From the NCBI RefSeq assembly GCF_000026545.1, contig NC_011601.1: a stretch of DNA of 64,000 nucleotides; one strand, given 5' to 3'. Made by a program: the position numbers and the translations under genes. The stretch comes from Escherichia coli O127:H6 str. E2348/69. Its GTDB lineage: Bacteria; Pseudomonadota; Gammaproteobacteria; Enterobacterales; Enterobacteriaceae. Every line of letters starts with the position of its first letter. The first letter of the stretch is position 1. The notes beneath the pieces are model-generated. The model was not told the DNA's origin and did not search any database. It was given only the letters and a program-made list of their open reading frames with translations. Positions 49,421-62,319 of this stretch are shown one piece after another.

Positions 49421-51367
49421 ATGAATATTTTAGGTTTTTTCCAGCGACTCGGTAGGGCGTTACAGCTCCCTATCGCGGTGCTGCCGGTGGCGGCGCTGTT
49501 GCTGCGATTCGGTCAGCCAGATTTACTTAACGTTGCGTTTATTGCCCAGGCGGGCGGTGCGATTTTTGATAACCTCGCATTAATCTTCGCCATCGGCGTG
49601 GCATCCAGCTGGTCGAAAGACAGCGCAGGTGCGGCGGCACTGGCGGGTGCGGTAGGTTACTTTGTGTTAACCAAAGCGATGGTGACCATCAACCCAGAAA
49701 TTAACATGGGTGTACTGGCGGGTATCATTACCGGTCTGGTTGGTGGCGCAGCCTATAACCGTTGGTCCGATATTAAACTGCCGGACTTCCTGAGCTTCTT
49801 CGGCGGCAAACGCTTTGTGCCGATCGCCACCGGCTTCTTCTGTCTGGTGCTGGCGGCCATTTTTGGTTACGTCTGGCCACCGGTACAGCACGCTATCCAT
49901 GCAGGCGGCGAGTGGATCGTTTCTGCGGGCGCGCTGGGTTCCGGTATCTTTGGTTTCATCAACCGTCTGCTGATCCCAACCGGTCTGCATCAGGTGCTGA
50001 ACACCATCGCCTGGTTCCAGATTGGTGAATTCACCAACGCGGCGGGAACGGTTTTCCACGGTGATATCAACCGCTTCTATGCCGGTGACGGCACCGCGGG
50101 GATGTTCATGTCCGGCTTCTTCCCGATTATGATGTTCGGTCTGCCGGGTGCGGCGCTGGCGATGTACTTCGCAGCACCGAAAGAGCGTCGTCCGATGGTT
50201 GGCGGTATGCTGCTTTCTGTTGCTGTTACTGCGTTCCTGACCGGTGTGACTGAGCCGCTGGAATTCCTGTTCATGTTCCTTGCGCCGCTGCTGTACCTCC
50301 TGCACGCACTGCTGACCGGTATCAGCCTGTTTGTGGCAACGCTGCTGGGTATCCATGCCGGCTTCTCTTTCTCTGCGGGGGCTATCGACTACGCGTTGAT
50401 GTATAACCTGCCGGCCGCCAGCCAGAACGTCTGGATGCTGCTGGTGATGGGTGTTGTCTTCTTCGCTATCTACTTCGTGGTGTTCAGTTTGGTTATCCGC
50501 ATGTTCAACCTGAAAACGCCGGGTCGTGAAGATAAAGAAGACGAGATCGTTACTGAAGAGGCTAACAGCAATACTGAAGAAGGTCTCAATCAACTGGCAA
50601 CCAACTATATTGCTGCGGTTGGCGGTACTGACAACCTGAAAGCCATTGACGCCTGTATTACTCGTCTGCGCCTTACCGTGGTTGACTCAGCTCGCGTCAA
50701 CGATGCGATGTGTAAACGTCTGGGTGCTTCTGGGGTAGTGAAACTGAACAAACAGACTATTCAGGTGATTGTTGGCGCGAAAGCAGAATCCATCGGCGAT
50801 GCGATGAAGAAAGTCGTTGCCCGTGGTCCGGTAGCCGCTGCGTCAGCTGAAGCAACTCCGGCAACTGCCGCGCCTGTAGCAAAACCGCAGGCTGTACCAA
50901 ACGCGGTATCTATCGCGGAGCTGGTATCGCCGATTACCGGGGATGTTGTGGCACTGGATCAGGTTCCTGACGAGGCATTCGCCAGCAAAGCGGTGGGTGA
51001 CGGTGTGGCGGTGAAACCGACGGATAAAATCGTCGTATCACCAGCCGCAGGGACAATCGTGAAAATCTTCAACACCAACCACGCGTTCTGCCTGGAAACC
51101 GAAAAAGGCGCGGAGATCGTCGTCCATATGGGTATCGACACTGTAGCGCTGGAAGGTAAAGGCTTTAAACGTCTGGTGGAAGAGGGCGCGCAGGTAAGCG
51201 CAGGGCAACCGATTCTGGAAATGGATCTGGATTACCTGAACGCTAACGCCCGTTCGATGATTAGCCCGGTGGTTTGCAGCAATATCGACGATTTCAGTGG
51301 CTTGATCATTAAAGCTCAGGGCCATGTTGTGGCGGGTCAAACACCGCTGTATGAAATCAAAAAGTAA
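49421..51367 (+). CDS. nagE: PTS N-acetylglucosamine-specific EIICBA
   Basis: 648-aa ORF: EIIC membrane domain, EIIB cysteine motif (CITRLR), EIIA domain. Confidence 0.9.
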   Translation: MNILGFFQRLGRALQLPIAVLPVAALLLRFGQPDLLNVAFIAQAGGAIFDNLALIFAIGVASSWSKDSAGAAALAGAVGYFVLTKAMVTINPEINMGVLAGIITGLVGGAAYNRWSDIKLPDFLSFFGGKRFVPIATGFFCLVLAAIFGYVWPPVQHAIHAGGEWIVSAGALGSGIFGFINRLLIPTGLHQVLNTIAWFQIGEFTNAAGTVFHGDINRFYAGDGTAGMFMSGFFPIMMFGLPGAALAMYFAAPKERRPMVGGMLLSVAVTAFLTGVTEPLEFLFMFLAPLLYLLHALLTGISLFVATLLGIHAGFSFSAGAIDYALMYNLPAASQNVWMLLVMGVVFFAIYFVVFSLVIRMFNLKTPGREDKEDEIVTEEANSNTEEGLNQLATNYIAAVGGTDNLKAIDACITRLRLTVVDSARVNDAMCKRLGASGVVKLNKQTIQVIVGAKAESIGDAMKKVVARGPVAAASAEATPATAAPVAKPQAVPNAVSIAELVSPITGDVVALDQVPDEAFASKAVGDGVAVKPTDKIVVSPAAGTIVKIFNTNHAFCLETEKGAEIVVHMGIDTVALEGKGFKRLVEEGAQVSAGQPILEMDLDYLNANARSMISPVVCSNIDDFSGLIIKAQGHVVAGQTPLYEIKK

Positions 51368-51377
51368 TCTGCTTTAT

Positions 51378-51406
51378 GCCTGATGCGACGCGGCAGCGTC
51401 GCATCC
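51378..51406. repeat. REP-type palindrome downstream of nagE
   Basis: gcctgatgcgacgcggcagcgtcgcatcc; arms gatgcgacgc / gcgtcgcatc. Confidence 0.6.
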
Positions 51407-51417
51407 AACAATAAAAA

Positions 51418-51447
51418 GCGGCAGGGATATTCTCTGCCGCTTTTTTT
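51418..51447 (+). terminator. rho-independent terminator of nagE
   Basis: gcggcagggatattctctgccgc followed by ttttttt. Confidence 0.7.
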
Positions 51448-51455
51448 GTCTGAGA

Positions 51456-52736
51456 TTACATTGGGAAGATAAAAACAGCGCCTGCACAAAGCGCCAGAAT
51501 GCGGATGAGATACATTGGTACAGAGAACACCCAGAATTCGGGAAGTTTGTATTTCCCCATTCCGAGGATCATGGCTGGCATTCCGTCAATAGGCATATAG
51601 CCGCCGTTCCAGCCTGAAATCACCACCGCAATCGCTGCAGCGGTCGGGTTAAGCCCAAGGCTGGTACAGGCGGCAATGGCGATGGGGGCAAAAATATAAA
51701 CAGACCCCATATTCGAACCCGTGAAGGTGGCGCAGGTACTGGTAAGCAAAGCAAAGGCGACAATAAATACAAATGGTGAGACGCCAGAACCGAGCACACC
51801 TGCAACGGCATCGCCAACCATCGCCGTAAAGCCGGTGCCCGCCAGTGCATCAGCTACACCGATCACCCCCGCCATCATTAAAATGACCGGCGCTCCCATA
51901 TGATCGCGAACTTCTTTAAAGTCCAGTACATCGATCATCAGAACAAACGCACCCGCAAGACCCGGAATAACGAAGGCGATATTTCCCAGAATGTTCATTA
52001 GCATCATGCCGATAACGCTGACAGCGAATGCGGCAATAGTGCAATATTCTTTCCAGGCAGGAAGGGCGTTAAACGTTTCCTCGCGTGCCGCCAGCGCATC
52101 CTCGGAAGCATCCGCAATGGGATGATCCGGAAGAAAACGGTAGGCAATAAGACTCCATGCGAGGAACGCCGCTGACATGATGAGATTCACCAGCGCAAAG
52201 CGCCCCATCGAAATCTCCTGATGAAAACCCGCGGTTTCGAGTACGGTCGCCGTAACGCCAAAGAGAAGCGCGAGATTGATAGGAAGAAGCGGGTGGTTGG
52301 TGGCAAATCCCAGGGGCATCATTAATTTCGATGTTGGTAGCTTTTTACTGTACGGAATGGTGGATACCAGCGACAGAATCAGCACGTAATAACCGGTCGC
52401 GCCGGTGCCTGCAAGACTGGCACCCAGCATAACAATGACTAACAACAGCCCGTAGCTGCGGTAACTGCCTTTATTGACCAGGCTTATCATCGCAGATTTA
52501 ACGTTGCTGATAAGCCGGGTTTTTTGTAGCGCTGCCATGACCACCATAAACCCTGCAATCATCACCACGCTTGGATTGACGAATCCGGCAAAAGCCTGTT
52601 GAACGGTCGAAAGTCCCGAGACAACCAGCAATAAACACGCAAGCAGTGGCGGTGCGCCAAATGGCATTTTGTCCGACATGATCAGCACGATCATCAGGAC
52701 CAGTATTCCTAATGCCAGGATCATTTCCATTGTCAT
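51456..52736 (-). CDS. ion-transporter-superfamily anion permease (putative organic/sugar-acid transporter)
   Basis: ORF-track frame 51456..52982 trimmed to ATG at 52736 (MTMEMILALG...) with RBS aggagaga; ~427-aa polytopic membrane protein; last gene of leftward island operon. Confidence 0.7.
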   Translation of the reverse strand: MTMEMILALGILVLMIVLIMSDKMPFGAPPLLACLLLVVSGLSTVQQAFAGFVNPSVVMIAGFMVVMAALQKTRLISNVKSAMISLVNKGSYRSYGLLLVIVMLGASLAGTGATGYYVLILSLVSTIPYSKKLPTSKLMMPLGFATNHPLLPINLALLFGVTATVLETAGFHQEISMGRFALVNLIMSAAFLAWSLIAYRFLPDHPIADASEDALAAREETFNALPAWKEYCTIAAFAVSVIGMMLMNILGNIAFVIPGLAGAFVLMIDVLDFKEVRDHMGAPVILMMAGVIGVADALAGTGFTAMVGDAVAGVLGSGVSPFVFIVAFALLTSTCATFTGSNMGSVYIFAPIAIAACTSLGLNPTAAAIAVVISGWNGGYMPIDGMPAMILGMGKYKLPEFWVFSVPMYLIRILALCAGAVFIFPM

Positions 52737-52749
52737 TTTTTCTCTCCTT

Positions 52750-53220
52750 TTAGGCTTCCAGCATGTCGCGCGGTACCTTAAAGACCGCTTTGCGTACTGA
52801 CGTAGCCGCGCCAATCGCGCACAGCGCCTGGTGAGGTTCCTCAGGCATAAAGACGGCGAAATCACCGGGGTGTAGAGTGATGGCGACACTGTTTTCAGGG
52901 GATGGGGCGATAAACAGATCGGGCTTACGTTCTTCATCGTTTTCGCGAGCGATGGGCCGCGTTCCCGCATTAATGCCCTCACAACCAGTAATCACCACCT
53001 GGATATCGGCCCACAGATGGTGATACTCCGTATGGCGGAGTTCGGCGGGTTGCGTGTCTGAAGTTCCCAGCGTGCAGAACCACCGACATCCTTCAGGTTG
53101 CCAGCGACCGTCCTCTCTGGCGGATAACGCCGATAACGAACACTCCGGGCACAGCAGAATATTTCTCACCCAGGCGGGAAGCCCCGCCAGCGACAAATGG
53201 TTGAGATTACCGATAATCAT
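52750..53220 (-). CDS. YhcH/YjgK/YiaL-family protein (NanQ-like)
   Basis: 156-aa ORF with PGDFAVFMPEEPH motif resembling E. coli YhcH; ATGA overlap with upstream gene. Confidence 0.75.
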   Translation of the reverse strand: MIIGNLNHLSLAGLPAWVRNILLCPECSLSALSAREDGRWQPEGCRWFCTLGTSDTQPAELRHTEYHHLWADIQVVITGCEGINAGTRPIARENDEERKPDLFIAPSPENSVAITLHPGDFAVFMPEEPHQALCAIGAATSVRKAVFKVPRDMLEA

Positions 53221-54386
53221 GATGCCTGCCCCTTAACCCACTCGGGGGAGATGCGCACGTACTTGATGGCCTGACGCCACCAGGTGTAAGCGATATGTAG
53301 CGTACCGTCCGGGCTTTGTTTGATGCTGGGGTAGGAGAACTCACGATTTAGCTTTTCCAGGGAATTGTTGGTCATGCAGTTGCCGTCGCCTTCATCGAGA
53401 TTGCGCCGCCACGGCCAGCTTTTCCCACCATCGGCAGAAATCGCTACCGTCATCGGCGCGCGTGGGGCCCCCCAGAAAGCGGAGCGTCCGACGGCTGTCG
53501 GTTCTTTGCGGCTGTCGTCGCCATCGTCGATTTCGTCATAAAGCGACGCGCGACGTTCTACTGCGCCTGCCGCACTCATCGCGTTGTACACCAGCGCCAG
53601 TTCGCCGCTGGCAAGCGTCGTTACCTGAATAGACGAATTGTTGTTGGGCAATTCGGTAGCTTGCGGCACCGACCAACTCTCGCCGTTGTCCACTGAATGG
53701 CTGATATAGATGTTGTCTGCCCAACGGCTGCGAAAGAGAGCAACCAACGTACCGTCGTGCAGCATTGTGATATTCATATGAACGCAGCCGAGACTTTGCG
53801 GCACCTCGACATCGCGCCATGAGTGACCACCGTCAGCGGAAATTTTCACTGCGCTGATATCATCATTGCCGACCCATTTTTCGCCGGGTTGGGTACGGCA
53901 ATAAAAGACGGGAAGCAGCCAGTTACCGTTATCAAGCACCGTGATCGGCTGGCGAATGAACGTGCCGGGTTTATCGAGCAGGGTGGCAATCTCGCCCCAG
54001 GTTTGCCCAAGGTCGTCAGACTTACGGTAGCGGACGATGGCCGTGTCCTGATTACCGGATATTTGTGCGGTCCATAGCAGCCACAGCACGTTATCCGGCG
54101 CGAGAAACAGCACCGGGTTTTGCTCTGAACGCGTGTCATCGTGGGAAAGTTTGACCGCATCGCTCCACTGCGTTCTGCCAGCGGGCAATCGTGATCCCCA
54201 GACAGAAATATCGGCAATACCTTCCTGTGTTCCCGCAAACCAGACGCACATTAATGCGCCATCCGGCATTGGCAGAATATTCGCCGCGTGGTTTTGCGGG
54301 CAGGACGAGGGCAGCATGGCGGTAAGCACATGCGAATCGTTTTCGGATGGACGGATGACGCCGTCACGAATAAGGGCTACAGACAT
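53217..54386 (-). CDS. BNR/Asp-box repeat protein, sialidase-fold, no signal peptide
   Basis: 389-aa ORF with four Asp-boxes (SDDLGQTW, SADGGHSW, SVDNGESW, SADGGKSW); N-terminus lacks hydrophobic signal; RBS ggag upstream. Confidence 0.75.
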   Translation of the reverse strand: MSVALIRDGVIRPSENDSHVLTAMLPSSCPQNHAANILPMPDGALMCVWFAGTQEGIADISVWGSRLPAGRTQWSDAVKLSHDDTRSEQNPVLFLAPDNVLWLLWTAQISGNQDTAIVRYRKSDDLGQTWGEIATLLDKPGTFIRQPITVLDNGNWLLPVFYCRTQPGEKWVGNDDISAVKISADGGHSWRDVEVPQSLGCVHMNITMLHDGTLVALFRSRWADNIYISHSVDNGESWSVPQATELPNNNSSIQVTTLASGELALVYNAMSAAGAVERRASLYDEIDDGDDSRKEPTAVGRSAFWGAPRAPMTVAISADGGKSWPWRRNLDEGDGNCMTNNSLEKLNREFSYPSIKQSPDGTLHIAYTWWRQAIKYVRISPEWVKGQAS

Positions 54387-54421
54387 AGTTAGACTCCATC
54401 TTAAAGTTGGTAATAGATTTA

Positions 54422-55180
54422 TTAATGCGAGTGCGATTCATGCGTTTCGATCAATGTCGAAACTTTTTTATTTCTTCTTTCACGGATAATATTGAGTGTC
54501 TCAACACTTAATGAGAAAAATATCGCGAAGTAGAGATACTCTTTGGCAATATGAATGTTGAGACTATCGGCAACCAGCAATACACCGACAAACAATAAAA
54601 AGGTTAACGCCAGTATTTTTATTGACGGCGTGGCGTTAACGAAATCACCAATTGTTTTCGCCGCAAACATCATGACACCGACGGCAATCATTACGGCGGC
54701 AATCATGATAAATATATGCTGAGAAAGGCCGACGGCGGTGATCACCGAATCCAGGCTAAACACGATATCGAGCAGCATTATCTGTACAATGGCACCGCAC
54801 AACGACAGTTGCCGCGATCCGCTGCCATGTTCGTCTTCCTGCGCGGGCGACAGCTCTTCGCGTATCTCCTGTATCGCTTTATAAATCAGGAACAGCCCGC
54901 CCCCGAGCAGAATCAACGTGCGGAACGAAATCTCCAGCGTCAGCACGGTAAAAAGCGGCTGGGTAATATGTGAAAGCCACGCAATGGATATCAGCAATAA
55001 TATCCGCATAATCATCGCGCAGCTTAAACCCAGTTTACGCGCCATATTTTGTTGTGATAACGGAAGTTTTGCCACCACCAGTGAAAGAAAAATAATATTA
55101 TCCACCCCAAGAATAATTTCCAGAAAGGTGAGGGTAATTAAAGTGAGCCAGATATCTGGCTGCATAAACCACAAAAACAT
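54422..55180 (-). CDS. TerC-family integral membrane protein
   Basis: 252-aa polytopic ORF (…TFLEIILGVDNIIFLSLV…); visibly more AT-rich than flanking island genes. Confidence 0.7.
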   Translation of the reverse strand: MFLWFMQPDIWLTLITLTFLEIILGVDNIIFLSLVVAKLPLSQQNMARKLGLSCAMIMRILLLISIAWLSHITQPLFTVLTLEISFRTLILLGGGLFLIYKAIQEIREELSPAQEDEHGSGSRQLSLCGAIVQIMLLDIVFSLDSVITAVGLSQHIFIMIAAVMIAVGVMMFAAKTIGDFVNATPSIKILALTFLLFVGVLLVADSLNIHIAKEYLYFAIFFSLSVETLNIIRERRNKKVSTLIETHESHSH

Positions 55181-55239
55181 GGGGTAATCCTTTATTCTCT
55201 TTATCTAAACTTTATAGCGGGCTGGATAATAGAGTTAAT

Positions 55240-56127
55240 TTAATTAATGTTATAATGACGAATAATTTGTTGAATCTCGCTGATCTGTTCAGGCGTGAAA
55301 TTAACCGCGTAGCGGCTATCACCAACATCATGCCCCATAAGCTGCAACGCTTTTTTCACCGCAGCCGGGGAGAATGCTACTTTATAAAGATCGGTACGCA
55401 GGCCCGTTACACTCTCCTGTGCTTCATAAGACCCTTCAATATCACCGGCATGGAAGCGAGACCAGATGGCATTGATTTCTCGCGGCGCGATGTTGGCGAG
55501 CCCAGAGATACAGGCTGAACATCCCTCGACAAACCCTTTATGGATCAGCGAATCCGGGCCGTTGAGCACATTAAAGCCGTCAATGTCGCGCACCGCATCG
55601 AGAAAACCCTTCAGGCTTTCGTCGCTTCCGGCGCTGTCTTTAATCCCAATGATATTGGGGTGCGACGCCAGAGCACGCGCGGTTTCTGGCTGGATCGTAT
55701 TGCCAGTGCGGGCCGGGATGTTATAGAGAAACATCGGAATGCTCAGTGCGTCGGCAATTGCGCTGTAATGCGCAATCAACTCTTCCTGTTTCAGCGGTAC
55801 GAAGTAAGGGGCAATGACCGACACGGCATCTACGCCAAGTTTTTCAATCTGCTGACCCAGACGAATCGTTTCGCGCGTAGAGATCTCGCCAATGTGTGCC
55901 ACGACCGGCGCACGACCAGCCACTTCATCCACGCAGGTTTGCGTAACGCTGAGCTTCTCCTGTTCATTCAACACAAAAAATTCGCCGTTGGTGCCGCCGC
56001 AAAAAATCGCGTTACCCGCTTCCAGTTGACGATTCACCTGCACTTTTAACGCCGGGATATTCAGACTGCCGGTCGCGGTAAACGGGGTGACGATAGCGGT
56101 TAATACACCTTCAATGGTTTTCGGCAT
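55240..56127 (-). CDS. DapA/NanA-family class I aldolase
   Basis: 295-aa ORF with GTNGEF and Schiff-base lysine context IGIKDS. Confidence 0.8.
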   Translation of the reverse strand: MPKTIEGVLTAIVTPFTATGSLNIPALKVQVNRQLEAGNAIFCGGTNGEFFVLNEQEKLSVTQTCVDEVAGRAPVVAHIGEISTRETIRLGQQIEKLGVDAVSVIAPYFVPLKQEELIAHYSAIADALSIPMFLYNIPARTGNTIQPETARALASHPNIIGIKDSAGSDESLKGFLDAVRDIDGFNVLNGPDSLIHKGFVEGCSACISGLANIAPREINAIWSRFHAGDIEGSYEAQESVTGLRTDLYKVAFSPAAVKKALQLMGHDVGDSRYAVNFTPEQISEIQQIIRHYNIN

Positions 56128-56130
56128 GAT

Positions 56131-57288
56131 TTATTCCTTAAATTGATGTTGCGGAAACAGTGTTTGGTAAATGGCCTGTACGTCCTGTAGATCAAGCTGG
56201 CACGGCACATTGTTCATAAGGCGCTTCACGTTCAGTGCCGCCTCGCTAAGAGAGGCAATATCCTCTGGCGGTACGCCGAGATCTGCGAGATTGTTGGGTA
56301 GCTTGAGTTGATTGACTAATGCCTGTAACCAGGTCACCAGGGCATGAGATTTTTCTTCCGCGCTCAGGGCGGTTTCCGCATCGGGAATGCAATCCCAGAC
56401 CCGGGCAAATTTCTCGACCGCCCAGGGGCGAACAAACGCCATGCACGGCGCCAGCAAGATGGCATTCGCGACGCCATGCGGCAGATGATATTTGCCACCT
56501 AACGGGTAGGAGAGCGCATGAACGAGATGCGTGCCCGCATGGGTTATCGCTACGCCGCCATAGTAAGACGCCCACAGCATTTCCAGTTTTGCGCGCAGAT
56601 CCTGAGGATCGTTCACGGCGGGTTGAATGTGCCGGAAAAGTTTACTTAACCCAGTCAGCGCCGCGTTATCGCTGACCGGATTTGCCACGGTCGCGGTAAA
56701 ACACTCCAGTAAGTGGCAAAGAGCATCAATGCCCGTGGACGCCGCAATATGCGCAGGCATGCTGGTGGTCAGTTCCGGGAAAAGCGCCACATAGTCTGGT
56801 AACAGCATCTGGGAAATAATACCCACCTTCGTGCTTTGCTCAGGGATTGCCAGAATCGCATTCGGCGTGGCTTCTGAGCCGGTTCCGGCGGTTGTAGGAA
56901 TCAACCATGATTGCACCCGCTGAGTTGGTTTTTCACCCGCAAGCAGCGCATCCAGCCCCGGAGATTGTGGATGGCAAAGCACCGATAGCAGCTTTGCCAC
57001 ATCCAACACGCTGCCACCGCCGATCCCGACCACCACATCAAAAGAGGCATCGCCAAGGACATCCATTAGCTGGCGCACATCATGATGCGTGGGCTCTGCG
57101 GGCACATTATCGATAACGTTAACCTGCGGGCAGTGCTGTTCCAGTAAGGCGCGAATCTGCTGCACACCGTCGAGCTGCGCAATATTACGGTCAGTGACCA
57201 GCAGCATTTTTCTGATGTCGGGTAAGAGCGACGTCAGGGAAGGGATAGCGCCTGCGCCGCTCAGTATCGTGCTATTGATAATTACCAC
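56131..57288 (-). CDS. iron-containing alcohol dehydrogenase family oxidoreductase
   Basis: 385-aa ORF, GTG start with RBS gagagg; GGGS motif (GIGGGSVLDVAK) and His-rich metal site (THAGTHLVHALSYPLGGKYHLPHG). Confidence 0.8.
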   Translation of the reverse strand: MVIINSTILSGAGAIPSLTSLLPDIRKMLLVTDRNIAQLDGVQQIRALLEQHCPQVNVIDNVPAEPTHHDVRQLMDVLGDASFDVVVGIGGGSVLDVAKLLSVLCHPQSPGLDALLAGEKPTQRVQSWLIPTTAGTGSEATPNAILAIPEQSTKVGIISQMLLPDYVALFPELTTSMPAHIAASTGIDALCHLLECFTATVANPVSDNAALTGLSKLFRHIQPAVNDPQDLRAKLEMLWASYYGGVAITHAGTHLVHALSYPLGGKYHLPHGVANAILLAPCMAFVRPWAVEKFARVWDCIPDAETALSAEEKSHALVTWLQALVNQLKLPNNLADLGVPPEDIASLSEAALNVKRLMNNVPCQLDLQDVQAIYQTLFPQHQFKE

Positions 57289-57457
57289 AAATAACCTCTC
57301 TTCTGGTGATTGAATTCAATCATTCAAAATGCCGTAGCCTACGTAACATGGTCTAATTTTATAATTTATTCGAGTGATTAATAACTTGAGCTTGCTCACA
57401 TTTAATCAATTGTGATTGAATATAATCATTATTATCATAAAACAACCTGGAGTGATG
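57289..57457. promoter_or_regulatory. divergent promoter/operator region of the island with two 16-bp palindromic sites
   Basis: perfect palindrome tgattgaattcaatca (57306..57321) and 14/16-identical tgattgaatataatca (57413..57428), each just upstream of one operon's first gene. Confidence 0.55.
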
Positions 57458-58693
57458 ATGGAAAAGGGAATCACTAAGCCGAGCATTCTCGTCGTTGCCG
57501 ATGATTTCACGGGAGCCAACGACGCGGGGGTAAGCCTGGCGCAGGTGGGGCATACAGTTGATGTGGCCTTTGAAATGCCTTATCACGGTGATGCCAGCGT
57601 ATGGGTGATTAACAGCGACAGCCGGGCGATGGATCCTAAGCTGGCGGCGATGAAAATAACCTCGCTGATGAGTCATCTCCCTCTGGCGAATAACCCGCCG
57701 CTCGTGATTAAAAAGATAGATTCCACGCTTCGAGGCAATATCGGCGCAGAAATTGAAGCCCTGATGAAGGCATGCGGTATAACGGGCGCAGTGATTGCCC
57801 CCGCATTTCCTCAGGCGGGAAGGACCACAGTGGCCGGTGAGTGTTGGGTAAACGGTGTGCGGATAACGGAAACCGAGTTTGCCAGCGATCCGAAAACCCC
57901 GGTATTGAGCGCCCGAATTGCGGACATCATCCGGTTGCAGACGGCCATTCCATGCCAGCCCGTTACGGTTTCTCAGCTCAGCCATTTGTCTTATGAGCAA
58001 CCGTGGATTGGCGTGATAGATGCGCAGACGGACAGCGACCTGGATCGCATCGCTGCCGCTGTGATGCAGGCTAAACAACCGCTACTGCTGGTCGGCTCCG
58101 CTGGTATTTGTGATGCCGTTGCCCGGCGCTCCGCGATTATGCCGCCACCCACCGTGCTGGCCATTATTGGTTCAATGAGCGAAATCGCTCAACGGCAGAT
58201 CGCCACACTGCATTCACACCCACGTATCACACAGATATACGTCGATGTTGAACACATTCTGGCAGGCAATGCCAGTGACTATGACGCGCGTATTGTGCAG
58301 GCCTTGCAGAAAGGCGACCACTGCATTGTCCACACCTGTAACGATTCTGTAGCAAGGCATCAGATCGACACCCTTTGCCAGCGTTGGCAGATGAGTCGCG
58401 CTGCACTTGGGGAAAAAATTTGTCGGTTTCTTGGCGAACTTACCCGGCAAGTTCTGCTTCGCACAATGCCCGATGCGCTTTATCTCTCTGGTGGCGATGT
58501 CGCAATGGCAACAGCCAGTGCGTTAGGCGCGACCGGGTTTCGTATTACGGGGAAGGTGGCGCAATGCGTTCCATATGGTCACTTTCTGGGCGGCGTCTGG
58601 TCCCGTTCGGTGATGACGAAAGCCGGTGGGTTTGGCGATGAGACCACGTTGCATCAGGTTCTGAATTTTATCGAGGAGAAGCGTAGTGAATAA
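57458..58693 (+). CDS. four-carbon acid-sugar kinase family protein (YgbK/OtnK-like)
   Basis: ORF-track frame from 57416; ATG at 57458 with GGAG 5 nt upstream; ILVVADDFTGANDAG and KKIDSTLRGNIGAE motifs. Confidence 0.8.
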   Translation: MEKGITKPSILVVADDFTGANDAGVSLAQVGHTVDVAFEMPYHGDASVWVINSDSRAMDPKLAAMKITSLMSHLPLANNPPLVIKKIDSTLRGNIGAEIEALMKACGITGAVIAPAFPQAGRTTVAGECWVNGVRITETEFASDPKTPVLSARIADIIRLQTAIPCQPVTVSQLSHLSYEQPWIGVIDAQTDSDLDRIAAAVMQAKQPLLLVGSAGICDAVARRSAIMPPPTVLAIIGSMSEIAQRQIATLHSHPRITQIYVDVEHILAGNASDYDARIVQALQKGDHCIVHTCNDSVARHQIDTLCQRWQMSRAALGEKICRFLGELTRQVLLRTMPDALYLSGGDVAMATASALGATGFRITGKVAQCVPYGHFLGGVWSRSVMTKAGGFGDETTLHQVLNFIEEKRSE

Positions 58694-59672
58694 CATTATT
58701 GCGGTAACGATGGGCGATCCGGCGGGTATTGGCCCGGAGATCATTATTAAATCCCTGAGCGAAGCCGGGCTTGCTGGTACCCCGGTGGTGGTGGTGGGCT
58801 GTGTGCGCACGCTGCGACGTATTATGGCGATGAATATCACGCCGCAGGCAGAGTTACGCGTCATTCAAAAGGTGTGCGACGCCCACTTTGCTCCCGGCGT
58901 GATTAACGTGATGGATGAGCCTCTGGCTAACCCCGATGCGCTGACACCTGGTGTGGTACAGGCTGCGGCAGGCGATTTAGCGTATCGCTGTATCAAACGT
59001 GCAACGGCCCTGGCCTTATCAGGCGAGGTGAAAGCCATAGCCACTGCGCCGTTGAATAAAGAAGCGCTGCATCTTGGCGGGCATAACTATCCGGGGCATA
59101 CGGAATTGCTGGCCCATCTTACCGGCAGCAAAGAGTACGCGATGGTGCTCTATACCGATAAGCTCAAGGTTATCCATATTTCGACTCACATCTCACTGCG
59201 TAAATTCCTGGATACTTTGAATGGTGAAAGGGTCAAAACGGTTATTCGAGTTGCGAACCACTTCCTGAAACGTGTCGGCATTGAGCGTCCGCGTATTGCC
59301 GTGGCGGGTGTAAATCCACATGCAGGGGAACACGGTTTATTCGGCACTGAGGAAATCGAGATTATCGCACCTGCGATTGAAGCAATGCAGGCCGAAGATA
59401 TTGATGTTACTGGCCCGTGCCCGCCAGATACCGTGTTCATGCAGTGCCATGAAGGGCTATTCGATATGGTGGTGGCTATGTACCATGATCAGGGGCATAT
59501 CCCTTTAAAACTGCTTGGATTTTATGATGGGGTGAATATCACCGCCGGGTTGCCATTTATTCGCACTTCTGCCGACCACGGCACCGCGTTTGATATTGCC
59601 TGGACAGGAAAAGCCAAGTCTGAGAGCATGGCAGTTTCCATCCAGTTAGCAATGCAGATTTCGCGAGAATAA
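58686..59672 (+). CDS. PdxA-family NAD-dependent dehydrogenase (PdxA2-like)
   Basis: 328-aa ORF, GTG start overlapping kinase stop by 8 bp; [14 protein letters not shown] and NPHAGE...YHDQG...[18 protein letters not shown] motifs. Confidence 0.8.
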
Positions 59673-59673
59673 A

Positions 59674-60435
59674 ATGAAGGGATATAACCGGTTAGAGCAG
59701 ATCATGGATTACCTGAAAAGCCATAATCTGGTCACCGTTGATGAGCTGGTGGCGGTAACCAATGCGTCGCCGGCTACGATTCGTCGAGACCTGATAAAAC
59801 TCGATGAGCAGGGTGTTATCAGCCGTACACACGGCGGTGTGACCCTCAACCGGTTTATTCCTACCCAACCGACTACCCATGAGAAAATGCAGCGCAGCCT
59901 GGCGGAAAAACATGCTATCGCCAGCGCAGCGGCGTCAATGGTCAAAGCGGGGGATTCCGTCGTCCTTGATGCCGGTACGACAATGATTGAACTTGCGCGG
60001 CAGATTACACATTTACCGCTTCGCGTGATCACCAGCGACCTGCATATCGCGCTTTTTTTGGCTGAATTCAAGCAAATTGAAGTGACGATTATCGGCGGAC
60101 GTATCGACGACTCCAGCCAGTCCTGCATTGGCGAACATGGTCGTAAATTGCTGCAAAATACCTGGCCGGACGTGGCATTTTTAAGCTGTAACAGCTGGGA
60201 TCTTGAAAAGGGTATTACAGCACCCACGGAAGAGAAAGCCGCACTAAAACGCGATCTTATCGCGCATGCTTCGCGCAAAATTCTCCTGGCTGACAGCTCA
60301 AAATACGGTTCATGGTCGCTGTTTAATATCGCGCATCTTAATGAACTGACAGAGATTATTACGGATAGTCAGCTTGATGGGCAGACGCGTAGAACGCTTG
60401 CGTCCTTGTCGACGCGTTTAATCATAGCCGACTAA
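59674..60435 (+). CDS. DeoR-family transcriptional regulator
   Basis: 253-aa ORF; N-terminal HTH (…[21 protein letters not shown]…), C-terminal sugar-phosphate-binding domain. Confidence 0.8.
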
Positions 60436-60654
60436 TCTATGACTCTGCGGCCAGCTCATCCGGCAATTTAATAAATGCGTCAGGCTGGCGACGTTTGGCC
60501 TTACGTTTCCAGCGCGAGGATCTGCTGGCAGTAGCGCAGAAAACGCCCCAATATCTTACGCAAAACCATTTTTTCGCTAACTAACAGTTGTCAGCCTGTC
60601 CCGCTTATAAGATCATACGCCGTTATACGTTGTTTACGCTTTGAGGAATCCACG

Positions 60655-62319
60655 ATGAGTGAGGCAGAAGCCCGCCCGACTAACTTTATCCGTCAGATCA
60701 TCGATGAAGATCTGGCCAGTGGTAAGCACACCACAGTACACACCCGTTTCCCGCCGGAGCCGAATGGCTATCTGCATATTGGCCATGCGAAATCTATCTG
60801 CCTGAACTTCGGGATCGCCCAGGACTATAAAGGCCAGTGCAACCTGCGTTTCGACGACACTAACCCGGTAAAAGAAGATATCGAGTATGTCGATTCGATC
60901 AAAAACGACGTAGAGTGGTTAGGTTTTCACTGGTCTGGTAACGTCCGTTACTCCTCCGATTATTTTGATCAGCTCCACGCCTATGCGATCGAACTGATCA
61001 ATAAAGGCCTGGCGTACGTTGATGAACTGACGCCGGAACAGATCCGCGAATACCGCGGCACCTTGACGCAGCCGGGTAAAAACAGCCCGTACCGCGATCG
61101 CAGCGTTGAAGAGAACCTGGCGCTGTTCGAGAAAATGCGTACCGGCGGTTTTGAAGAAGGTAAAGCCTGCCTGCGTGCGAAGATCGACATGGCTTCGCCG
61201 TTTATCGTGATGCGCGATCCGGTGCTGTACCGCATTAAGTTTGCTGAACACCACCAGACTGGCAACAAGTGGTGCATCTACCCGATGTACGACTTCACCC
61301 ACTGCATCAGCGATGCGCTGGAAGGTATTACGCACTCTCTGTGTACGCTTGAGTTCCAGGACAACCGCCGTCTGTACGACTGGGTACTGGACAATATCAC
61401 CATTCCTGTTCACCCGCGCCAGTACGAATTCTCGCGCCTGAATCTGGAATACACTGTGATGTCCAAGCGTAAGCTGAACCTGCTGGTGACCGATAAGCAC
61501 GTTGAAGGCTGGGATGACCCACGTATGCCGACCATTTCTGGTCTGCGTCGTCGTGGTTACACTGCGGCTTCTATTCGTGAGTTCTGCAAACGCATTGGTG
61601 TGACCAAGCAGGACAACACCATTGAGATGGCGTCACTGGAATCCTGCATCCGTGAAGATCTCAACGAAAATGCGCCGCGCGCAATGGCGGTTATCGATCC
61701 GGTGAAACTGGTTATCGAAAACTACCAGGGCGAAGGCGAAATGGTTACCATGCCGAACCATCCGAATAAACCGGAAATGGGCAGCCGCCAGGTGCCATTT
61801 AGCGGTGAGATTTGGATCGATCGCGCCGATTTCCGCGAAGAAGCTAACAAGCAGTACAAACGTCTGGTGCTGGGTAAAGAAGTGCGTCTGCGTAATGCTT
61901 ACGTCATTAAGGCAGAACGCGTCGAGAAAGATGCCGAAGGCAATATCACCACCATCTTCTGTACTTATGACGCCGACACCTTAAGCAAAGATCCGGCAGA
62001 TGGTCGTAAAGTCAAAGGTGTTATTCACTGGGTGAGCGCGGCACATGCGCTGCCGGTTGAAATCCGTTTGTATGACCGTCTGTTCAGCGTGCCGAACCCT
62101 GGTGCTGCGGATGATTTCCTGTCGGTGATTAACCCGGAATCGCTGGTGATCAAACAGGGCTTTGCTGAACCGTCGCTGAAAGATGCGGTTGCGGGTAAAG
62201 CATTCCAGTTTGAGCGTGAAGGTTACTTCTGCCTCGACAGCCGCCATTCTACGGCGGAAAAACCGGTATTTAACCGCACCGTTGGGCTGCGTGATACCTG
62301 GGCGAAAGTAGGCGAGTAA
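60655..62319 (+). CDS. glnS: glutamine--tRNA ligase
   Basis: 554-aa ORF with HIGH (HIGHAKS) and MSK motifs. Confidence 0.95.

Follow-up and report, generated by a model that had tools for sequence, protein, structure and literature searches.

The gene at positions 54422..55180 (minus strand) of the window, by which we mean the whole stretch of 64,000 nucleotides from Escherichia coli O127:H6 strain E2348/69 that was analysed, encodes a TerC-family membrane protein of 252 amino acids and lies in a sugar-acid catabolic operon, between the genes for a DHDPS/NanA-family lyase and a BNR_2 sialidase-family protein. We lean slightly towards the view that this gene is an integral and selected module of one derived variant of the operon, that its base composition results mainly from its amino acids together with rare codons, and that its product is an ion exporter. 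A sequence-only reading, made without database searches, had recognized both the protein family and the operon setting, and had taken the low content of guanine and cytosine (GC) as a hint of mosaic origin or of a later insertion. The operon has turned out to be mosaic indeed, although the GC content is not good evidence for this, and the later insertion into the E. coli island did not stand up to the comparison of genomes.

Place and distribution of the TerC gene

By every sequence criterion tested, the island gene qualifies as a real and selected member of the TerC family. Its product matches the Pfam profile TerC (PF03741) over profile positions 1-177 of 178, with an E-value of 4.3e-46 and 157.3 bits compared with a gathering cut-off of 27.8. 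The open reading frame is intact in the window, and RefSeq lists the product as "TerC family protein" (WP_000480546.1); the gene is therewith already annotated and ordinary in kind. A Kyte-Doolittle scan, from which alone the hydrophobic segments were read, gives about seven hydrophobic stretches and a grand average of hydropathicity of +0.90. The first acidic motif comprises codons E21-N28 (LEIILGVDN; 55097..55120, minus strand) and the second codons D138-S145 (DIVFSLDS; 54746..54769, minus strand). Within these, E21, D27, D138 and D144 are invariant in our alignment A1 and correspond to residues E86, D92, D216 and D222 of Alx, which are needed for Mn2+ export and whose substitution abolishes export (PMC10197570). 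The position equal to Alx E213 is hydrophobic in the island protein, which thus keeps four of the five Alx acidic residues. Compared with its orthologues, the gene has a nonsynonymous divergence (dN) of 0.16-0.19, while synonymous sites are at or near saturation, with a synonymous divergence (dS) of 2.2 in one pair and a proportion of synonymous differences (pS) of 0.76-0.80 in the other five. Across the orthologue pairs dN/dS is at most about 0.09, and the flanking enzymes behave alike. No solved structure was matched by the TerC alignment in a PDB sequence search.

The operon is part of an accessory island of 9.1 kb between nagE and glnS (51451..60578), where homology to K-12 W3110 stops at position 51450 and resumes at position 60579. 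The island, which K-12 lacks, stands in place of a piece of about 40 bp in the nagE-glnS spacer of that strain, and its RefSeq annotation contains no mobility genes. That annotation was fetched for the whole window (E2348/69 chromosome NZ_CP059840.2, reverse strand, 100% identical over a 9.4-kb island query), and the gene coordinates of the record translate cleanly on the window. A survey of 5426 complete E. coli genomes detected the island in 1047 of them, and the TerC gene was likewise matched in 1047. With the BNR_2 protein as bait and one genome per species, 76 related loci were collected, each of which was scored for nine island proteins. TerC proteins with 70-82% identity to the E. coli island copy occur in Salmonella enterica subsp. 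salamae, Kluyvera, the Klebsiella oxytoca complex, Scandinavium and Metakosakonia, and the one of Pseudocitrobacter is 91% identical. Every case examined contains the full nine-gene cluster with TerC between DHDPS and BNR_2, which amounts to at least seven other genera and three chromosomal sites; in most genera the cluster adjoins marC-marRAB, and in Scandinavium an oligogalacturonate-lyase-like gene. Signs of cluster decay were seen in two assemblies, one of Salmonella salamae with BNR_2 split into 338 + 52 amino acids (L005 9392-10563) and one of Metakosakonia with the iron-containing alcohol dehydrogenase (Fe-ADH) split into 126 + 205 amino acids (L093 4886-6031).

These data bear on the idea that a foreign TerC gene of lower GC content was recently inserted into an already assembled E. 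coli island. It is true that the gene has the lowest GC content among the nine genes of the island and an excess of rare codons, but TerC is matched in as many E. coli genomes (1047) as contain the island, and beyond E. coli the same gene order recurs in no fewer than seven genera, where the identity of TerC is 70-91%, in step with the neighbours. In three genera for which this was compared, TerC is 73-76% identical to the E. coli copy and thereby falls inside the 52-88% of its neighbours. Furthermore, neither the sequence nor the annotation of the TerC borders reveals repeats or mobility genes, the GC deficit is mostly a matter of amino-acid composition, and the bias at third codon positions (GC3) persists under saturated dS. 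A recent insertion into the E. coli island is thus ruled out, and we give this explanation practically no credence.

The wider cluster family comes in two versions, which were tallied over the BNR-baited loci with enough flanking sequence. Their common core consists of deoR-pdxA2-dtnK, divergent from FeADH-DHDPS-X-BNR_2-YhcH-Y, where X and Y denote the slots that differ. In version A, found in eight species-level loci, X is TerC and Y an SLC13/CitMHS-like permease. In version B, found in 44 loci, X is a Na+/solute symporter of 470 amino acids (Pfam SSF) and Y a dehydrogenase of the short-chain dehydrogenase/reductase (SDR) family; its hosts include Leclercia, Enterobacter, Lelliottia, Pantoea, Kosakonia, Pectobacterium, Dickeya, Erwinia and Pseudomonas oryzihabitans. 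The transporter types in the high-GC Pseudomonas and Curtobacterium loci were assigned from tblastn only. TerC was never found without SLC13 among the BNR-baited loci, and in Enterobacterales the occurrence of the permease coincides exactly with that of TerC. The sequence-only reading had named beforehand a consistent co-occurrence of TerC with this operon as evidence that would speak against it, and such co-occurrence is found for version A, but not for the wider cluster family.

When five core proteins were concatenated for a neighbour-joining tree with 100 bootstraps, version A without Salmonella formed a clade in 100/100 replicates that is nested inside version B. As the outgroups of this tree, namely Pectobacterium, Dickeya, Erwinia, Mixta and Mangrovibacter, all carry version B as well, version B is considered ancestral. 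In Salmonella salamae, deoR, pdxA2, dtnK and Fe-ADH are closest to the version B clusters of Intestinirhabdus and Citrobacter, yet TerC and SLC13 are present, and therefore modules have been exchanged between backbones. The comparison of TerC with its neighbours, which the sequence-only reading had proposed, thus speaks against an insertion by its divergence values, while the derived state of version A and the mixed backbone of Salmonella salamae support the mosaic part of the claim. The same pair of PhzF-like genes together with a gene of the MFS family stands beside the cluster in Leclercia (version B, L017 12406-14018) and in K. oxytoca (version A, L008 13857-15473), so that the modules seem to have been swapped in place at a common chromosomal locus. 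For E. coli, the comparison shows that the whole version A cluster was acquired as a block between nagE and glnS.

Base composition and codon usage

The hand counts of the sequence-only reading, 42-43% GC inside the TerC gene and about 53% in the BNR gene, were right in direction and rough size, as the computed values are 0.444 and 0.566 for TerC and the adjacent BNR_2 gene. TerC is the compositional outlier of the operon, given that the other island genes range from 0.504 to 0.566, and among the 56 annotated genes of the window (mean 0.523, standard deviation 0.032) only the 210-bp cspE lies below it. Its stretch belongs to the lowest 6.7% of all 759-bp segments, and the equally low stretches are mostly intergenic regulatory regions. 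The low GC content is therewith real.

However, GC content as a sign of a foreign origin fails once it is split by codon position and compared with the value expected from the amino acids. The main seat of the deficit is at the first and second codon positions (0.478 versus a mean of 0.596, and 0.324 versus 0.402), whereas GC3 is unremarkable with 0.530 versus a mean of 0.571 (standard deviation 0.049). The protein contains 13% isoleucine, 17% leucine and 6% phenylalanine, compared with 6.7%, 10.4% and 3.7% elsewhere in the window, and these three residues make up 36% of TerC versus 21%. From its amino acids and the codon usage of core E. coli genes, a GC content of 0.476 is predicted, compared with an observed value of about 0.444-0.446, and therefore about five of the eight missing GC points come from the protein composition. 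The remainder is seen at the third position, where 0.565-0.592 is expected; the residual deficit of -0.062 relative to core codon usage, or -0.035 relative to the other island genes, lies within the spread of core genes (standard deviation 0.054, minimum -0.124). It is carried by rare AT-ending codons: ATA accounts for 9 of 33 isoleucine codons (27%), whereas the remaining genes of the island use it in 14 of 202 (7%; p = 0.0015), and the shares of TTA and AGA are increased, too. The core paralogue ygdQ is free of such a bias (GC 0.499, GC3 0.576 versus 0.592 expected).

The same features recur beyond E. coli. TerC has the lowest GC content within the cluster in all four genera compared, its GC3 residual is the most negative one in three of them (-0.109, -0.040 and -0.153) and the second in E. 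coli (-0.035, after SLC13), and ATA makes up 19-27% of its isoleucine codons in the four genera, mostly at non-conserved positions. As this bias is found in four genera despite synonymous turnover, it is probably maintained in each lineage and not left over from a recent foreign origin. The low GC content therefore has two sources, mainly the very hydrophobic amino acids and in addition a maintained preference for rare AT-ending codons. Candidate causes of this preference are low expression or a selection that favours slow, rare codons where a polytopic membrane protein is made. More generally, low GC in a gene for a membrane protein is weak evidence of foreign origin, and it was the cross-species comparison of the operon that settled the question here.

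Two other places in the window stood out in composition. A gene between lnt and gltI (33056-34933, minus strand), annotated as "rhomboid family intramembrane serine protease", has the strongest GC3 deficit of the 56 genes (0.510 versus 0.585 expected, z about -4) and looks like another accessory insertion. At 13843-14163, the annotation gives a YbeF-family regulator as a truncated pseudogene with a frameshift, inside a stretch that is among the lowest in GC within the window.

Operon setting and possible function

The minus-strand operon starts with the gene for the Fe-ADH (56131..57288; Pfam Fe-ADH, ADH_Fe_C), followed by the DHDPS/NanA-family lyase directly upstream of TerC (55240..56127; Pfam DHDPS, 3.5e-61). 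Directly downstream of TerC are the genes for the BNR_2 sialidase-family protein (53217..54386; Pfam BNR_2, 3.5e-65), a YhcH/NanQ-like protein (52750..53220; DUF386, 2.2e-26), and, as last gene, the SLC13/CitMHS-like permease of the ion-transporter superfamily (51456..52736; Pfam CitMHS, 3.4e-24 and 86 bits; NCBIfam DASS, 2e-15 and under the cut-off), all on the minus strand. The divergent plus-strand operon (57458..60435) encodes, according to NCBIfam and the RefSeq annotation, dtnK, pdxA2 and a DeoR-family regulator. In NCBIfam, the D-threonate kinase scores 533 bits versus a cut-off of 450, and the D-threonate 4-phosphate dehydrogenase 680 versus 583. PDB sequence searches with the BNR_2 protein and the permease gave no match, and with the DHDPS-family protein only generic DapA and YagE structures. 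The island corresponds to genomic region GR6 (nagE..glnS) of strain BEN2908, an extraintestinal and avian pathogenic E. coli, where it was described as "uncharacterised sugar metabolism" with eight open reading frames that do not include TerC (PMC12928451). TerC is missing from that list because an IS1 element splits the gene in BEN2908 (hit H45). We found no description of a TerC gene within a catabolic operon in the literature. Strains such as E2348/69, CFT073, APEC O1 and LF82 have the island as a lineage marker.

TerC and its neighbours share one strand, and the gaps of 59 bp to the upstream DHDPS-family gene and of 35 bp to the downstream BNR_2 gene fit a co-transcription with the catabolic genes. 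The AT-rich 59-bp spacer (55181..55239, minus strand) contains, as read from the sequence, an AAGGA 7 nt before the ATG, and in other genera this spacer has 112-282 bp. A riboswitch or internal promoter ahead of TerC was considered and rejected. Rfam (51000-61000, E <= 1) detected no riboswitch, including yybP-ykoY, and its sole match was a chance small RNA (sRNA); the promoter and terminator scans stayed at chance level, including the one promoter-like match in the spacer. Presumably, TerC expression is tied to the sugar-acid regulon rather than to metal or pH. At the other end of the operon, between the convergent nagE and SLC13 genes, the hairpin AAAAAGCGGCAGGGATATTCTCTGCCGCTTTTTTT (about 51412-51446) with an A-run and a T-run at its sides could act as a bidirectional transcription terminator.

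Since TerC entered the operon together with a citrate/dicarboxylate-type permease and in replacement of a Na+ symporter, we propose a role in divalent-cation export. The island TerC would be an exporter of divalent cations of the Mn2+/Ca2+ type. The new permease would take up a chelating acid sugar, with metal entering alongside or being freed from the substrate, and TerC would dispose of the metal that was brought in; the replaced Na+-coupled symporter would create no such need. This specific metal-recycling mechanism is put forward tentatively. Characterised TerC proteins export or handle Mn2+ (PMC10197570; PMC10550928; PMC13274385). An E. coli ygdQ knockout loses CaCO3 precipitation, within a model in which cells that grow on calcium carboxylates require a Ca2+ exporter of unidentified nature (PMC12707652), and ygdQ is a target of, and repressed by, the low-Mg2+-responsive sRNA MgrR (PMC6239178; PMC8550237). 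A second, unrelated TerC of the YjbE type, 22-29% identical to the one of E. coli, occurs directly after Fe-ADH in a homologous cluster of Propionivibrio soli (L060 12385-13122). That cluster comprises TctA and TctC of a tripartite tricarboxylate transporter and DHDPS, followed by a DeoR-family regulator, a DUF1537 kinase, PdxA, BNR_2, Fe-ADH and TerC, and the same Fe-ADH-TerC arrangement is present in a 72%-diverged metagenome relative (L089 6001-6738). By a rough estimate, the chance of such a TerC adjacency among about ten independent cluster contexts is 1-2%. It is conceivable, if rather doubtful, that TerC proteins of the YgdQ type and, independently, of the YjbE type were recruited as dedicated partners of carboxylate uptake, exporting Ca2+, Mn2+ or Mg2+ that enters complexed with a chelating acid sugar. 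If the metal-recycling mechanism holds true, the uncharacterised YgdQ subfamily would gain a physiological role, together with an inducible operon for testing it. In any case, a YgdQ-like paralogue wired into an inducible catabolic operon is a concrete setting to probe this branch of TerC proteins.

Several observations weigh against this account. Seven actinobacterial loci contain an SLC13 homologue with no TerC within 10 kb. The joint gain of TerC and SLC13 in Enterobacteriaceae may have been one event and would hence be weak evidence of a coupling. The permease occurs in two allele classes of about 75% identity that recombine independently of TerC: Escherichia sp. MOD1-EC7003 carries a permease of the Kluyvera/Salmonella type (L011 8040-9320), with 75% identity to E2348/69 for SLC13, 98% for TerC and 92-99% for the other island genes, a sequence pattern that indicates recombination at the 3' end of the operon. 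The permease family is only weakly assignable, as CitMHS reaches 86 bits, DASS stays under its cut-off and no relative is solved, and the uptake of a metal complex is therefore a guess. Orthologues of the Propionivibrio TerC with 71-73% identity are found in unrelated contexts, and its adjacency to Fe-ADH could be accidental. All trees are neighbour-joining trees only. Finally, the gene is naturally lost in part of the E. coli population. A G5 run at 54900..54904 (minus strand) is a frameshift hotspot, at which a 1-bp deletion cuts TerC after codon 92. APEC O1 has this deletion, with the gene annotated as "frameshifted", and also a 7-bp deletion near the 3' end; of 1046 genomes with the island, 124 (about 12%) match the deletion junction at >= 99% identity, among them the type strain ATCC 11775. 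The IS1 disruption is limited to one genome, BEN2908. These natural disruptions imply that TerC is dispensable in such strains, perhaps because ygdQ is present. The frameshift alleles are at the same time ready-made controls.

Among rare E. coli variants of the protein (P0002, P0004, P0005 and P0042), some lack 5 or 17 residues in frame, in the region that follows the second acidic motif (LSQHIFIMIAAVMIAVG), and in one a deletion has fused TerC to BNR_2.

The losses lend weight to another explanation, according to which TerC, as a paralogue of YgdQ, is redundant, came into the cluster as a hitch-hiker when the latter was rearranged, plays no role specific to the pathway, and is kept only by linkage and a generic YgdQ-like housekeeping function. 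Apart from the frameshifts, the IS1 insertion and the internal deletions, it is in favour of this explanation that the version B and actinobacterial clusters work without TerC and that every host has a core ygdQ, too. Against it stand the dN/dS of at most 0.09 over saturated synonymous divergence in several genera, the invariance of all four acidic motif residues, a slot that was kept through three relocations of the cluster, and the second, independent TerC adjacency in Propionivibrio. On balance we regard such hitch-hiking as rather unlikely.

Instead of an inorganic ion, TerC could handle an organic solute, be it as an exporter of a toxic intermediate or product or as an accessory subunit of the SLC13-like permease. 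The LysE superfamily includes small-molecule exporters. TerC proteins are a subgroup of this superfamily (PMC10550928), and the gene occupies the exact slot of the version B transporter gene and was gained together with the permease. However, all characterised TerC proteins handle Mn2+ (PMC10197570; PMC10550928; PMC13274385), and the conserved intramembrane Asp/Glu pairs suit cations. In addition, the SLC13 alleles swap independently of TerC and no co-evolution of TerC and permease was seen. An organic solute is thus quite unlikely.

For Bacillus subtilis TerC proteins, a role in metal loading has been established (PMC10550928; PMC12096827), and the island TerC might accordingly be a MeeF/MeeY-like chaperone that loads metal onto an exported or membrane-bound pathway enzyme. 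No cluster enzyme appears to be exported, though: the BNR_2 protein, which starts with MSVALIRDGVIRPSEND, has no evident signal peptide as judged by eye, and the remaining products are members of families whose enzymes usually work in the cytoplasm. We therefore consider a chaperone role to be very improbable.

Relation to known TerC groups and to version B clusters

Among known TerC proteins, the closest one is K-12 YgdQ (b2832), an uncharacterised inner-membrane protein with 62% identity over the full length, the same layout of about seven transmembrane segments, and the same E-x5-DN and D-x5-DS motifs. The island protein is nevertheless not a YgdQ orthologue. All YgdQ proteins of Enterobacterales form a clade without the island proteins in 100/100 bootstraps, and both groups together exclude all other family representatives in 90/100. 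The genetic context is DHDPS-TerC-BNR_2 and not mutH-ygdQ-ygdR-tas, GC3 is lower, ATA codons are far more frequent, and the island protein has a C-terminal tail of 15 amino acids, unlike YgdQ. Judging from these sequence comparisons, the island TerC is an old or fast-evolving YgdQ-type paralogue. A donor could not be named, as a search of 1.8 billion cluster representatives gave only relatives with up to 55% identity, which are usable as outgroups. A metagenome contig of 5605 bp and 3.5x coverage (L087; Fe-ADH, DHDPS, TerC, ygdR, tas) would have suggested an origin next to ygdQ, but was rejected as an assembly artefact: its TerC protein (P0038) shows 100% identity to the island TerC of K. oxytoca over residues 1-125, but reaches up to about 95% identity to the best YgdQ over residues 140-238, and the chimera most likely formed at the motif region that is conserved in both paralogues.

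The Mn2+-exporting or metal-loading proteins Alx, Bacillus MeeF/MeeY and Vibrio TerC belong to the same Pfam family, and, as mentioned before, four of five Alx acidic residues are kept. The island TerC is, however, only about 22% identical to Alx, is not preceded by the yybP-ykoY Mn2+ riboswitch, and stays below the NCBIfam cut-offs of the riboswitch-linked subfamilies YkoY (85.6 versus 138.5) and YjbE (67.4 versus 134.8). With the TerC of the tellurite-resistance system terZABCDE it has only the Pfam family in common. Genes for TerB, TerD, TerZ, TerA or TerE are not found nearby, the eight neighbouring genes being all of other families, and no transport of tellurite is known for TerC proteins (PMC10550928).

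The version B cluster is the nearest relative of the operon as a whole. It has a homologous deoR-pdxA2-dtnK and FeADH-DHDPS-...-BNR_2-YhcH core with 60-87% identity and, in Enterobacteriaceae, often occupies the same chromosomal site as version A in Klebsiella; it differs by the symporter in the TerC slot and the SDR dehydrogenase in the slot of the SLC13-like permease. In view of these known systems, the modestly new points are the fixed place of a TerC gene in one variant of a mosaic acid-sugar operon, its replacement of a Na+ symporter together with the arrival of an SLC13-like permease, and the handle that this provides on the function of YgdQ-type proteins.

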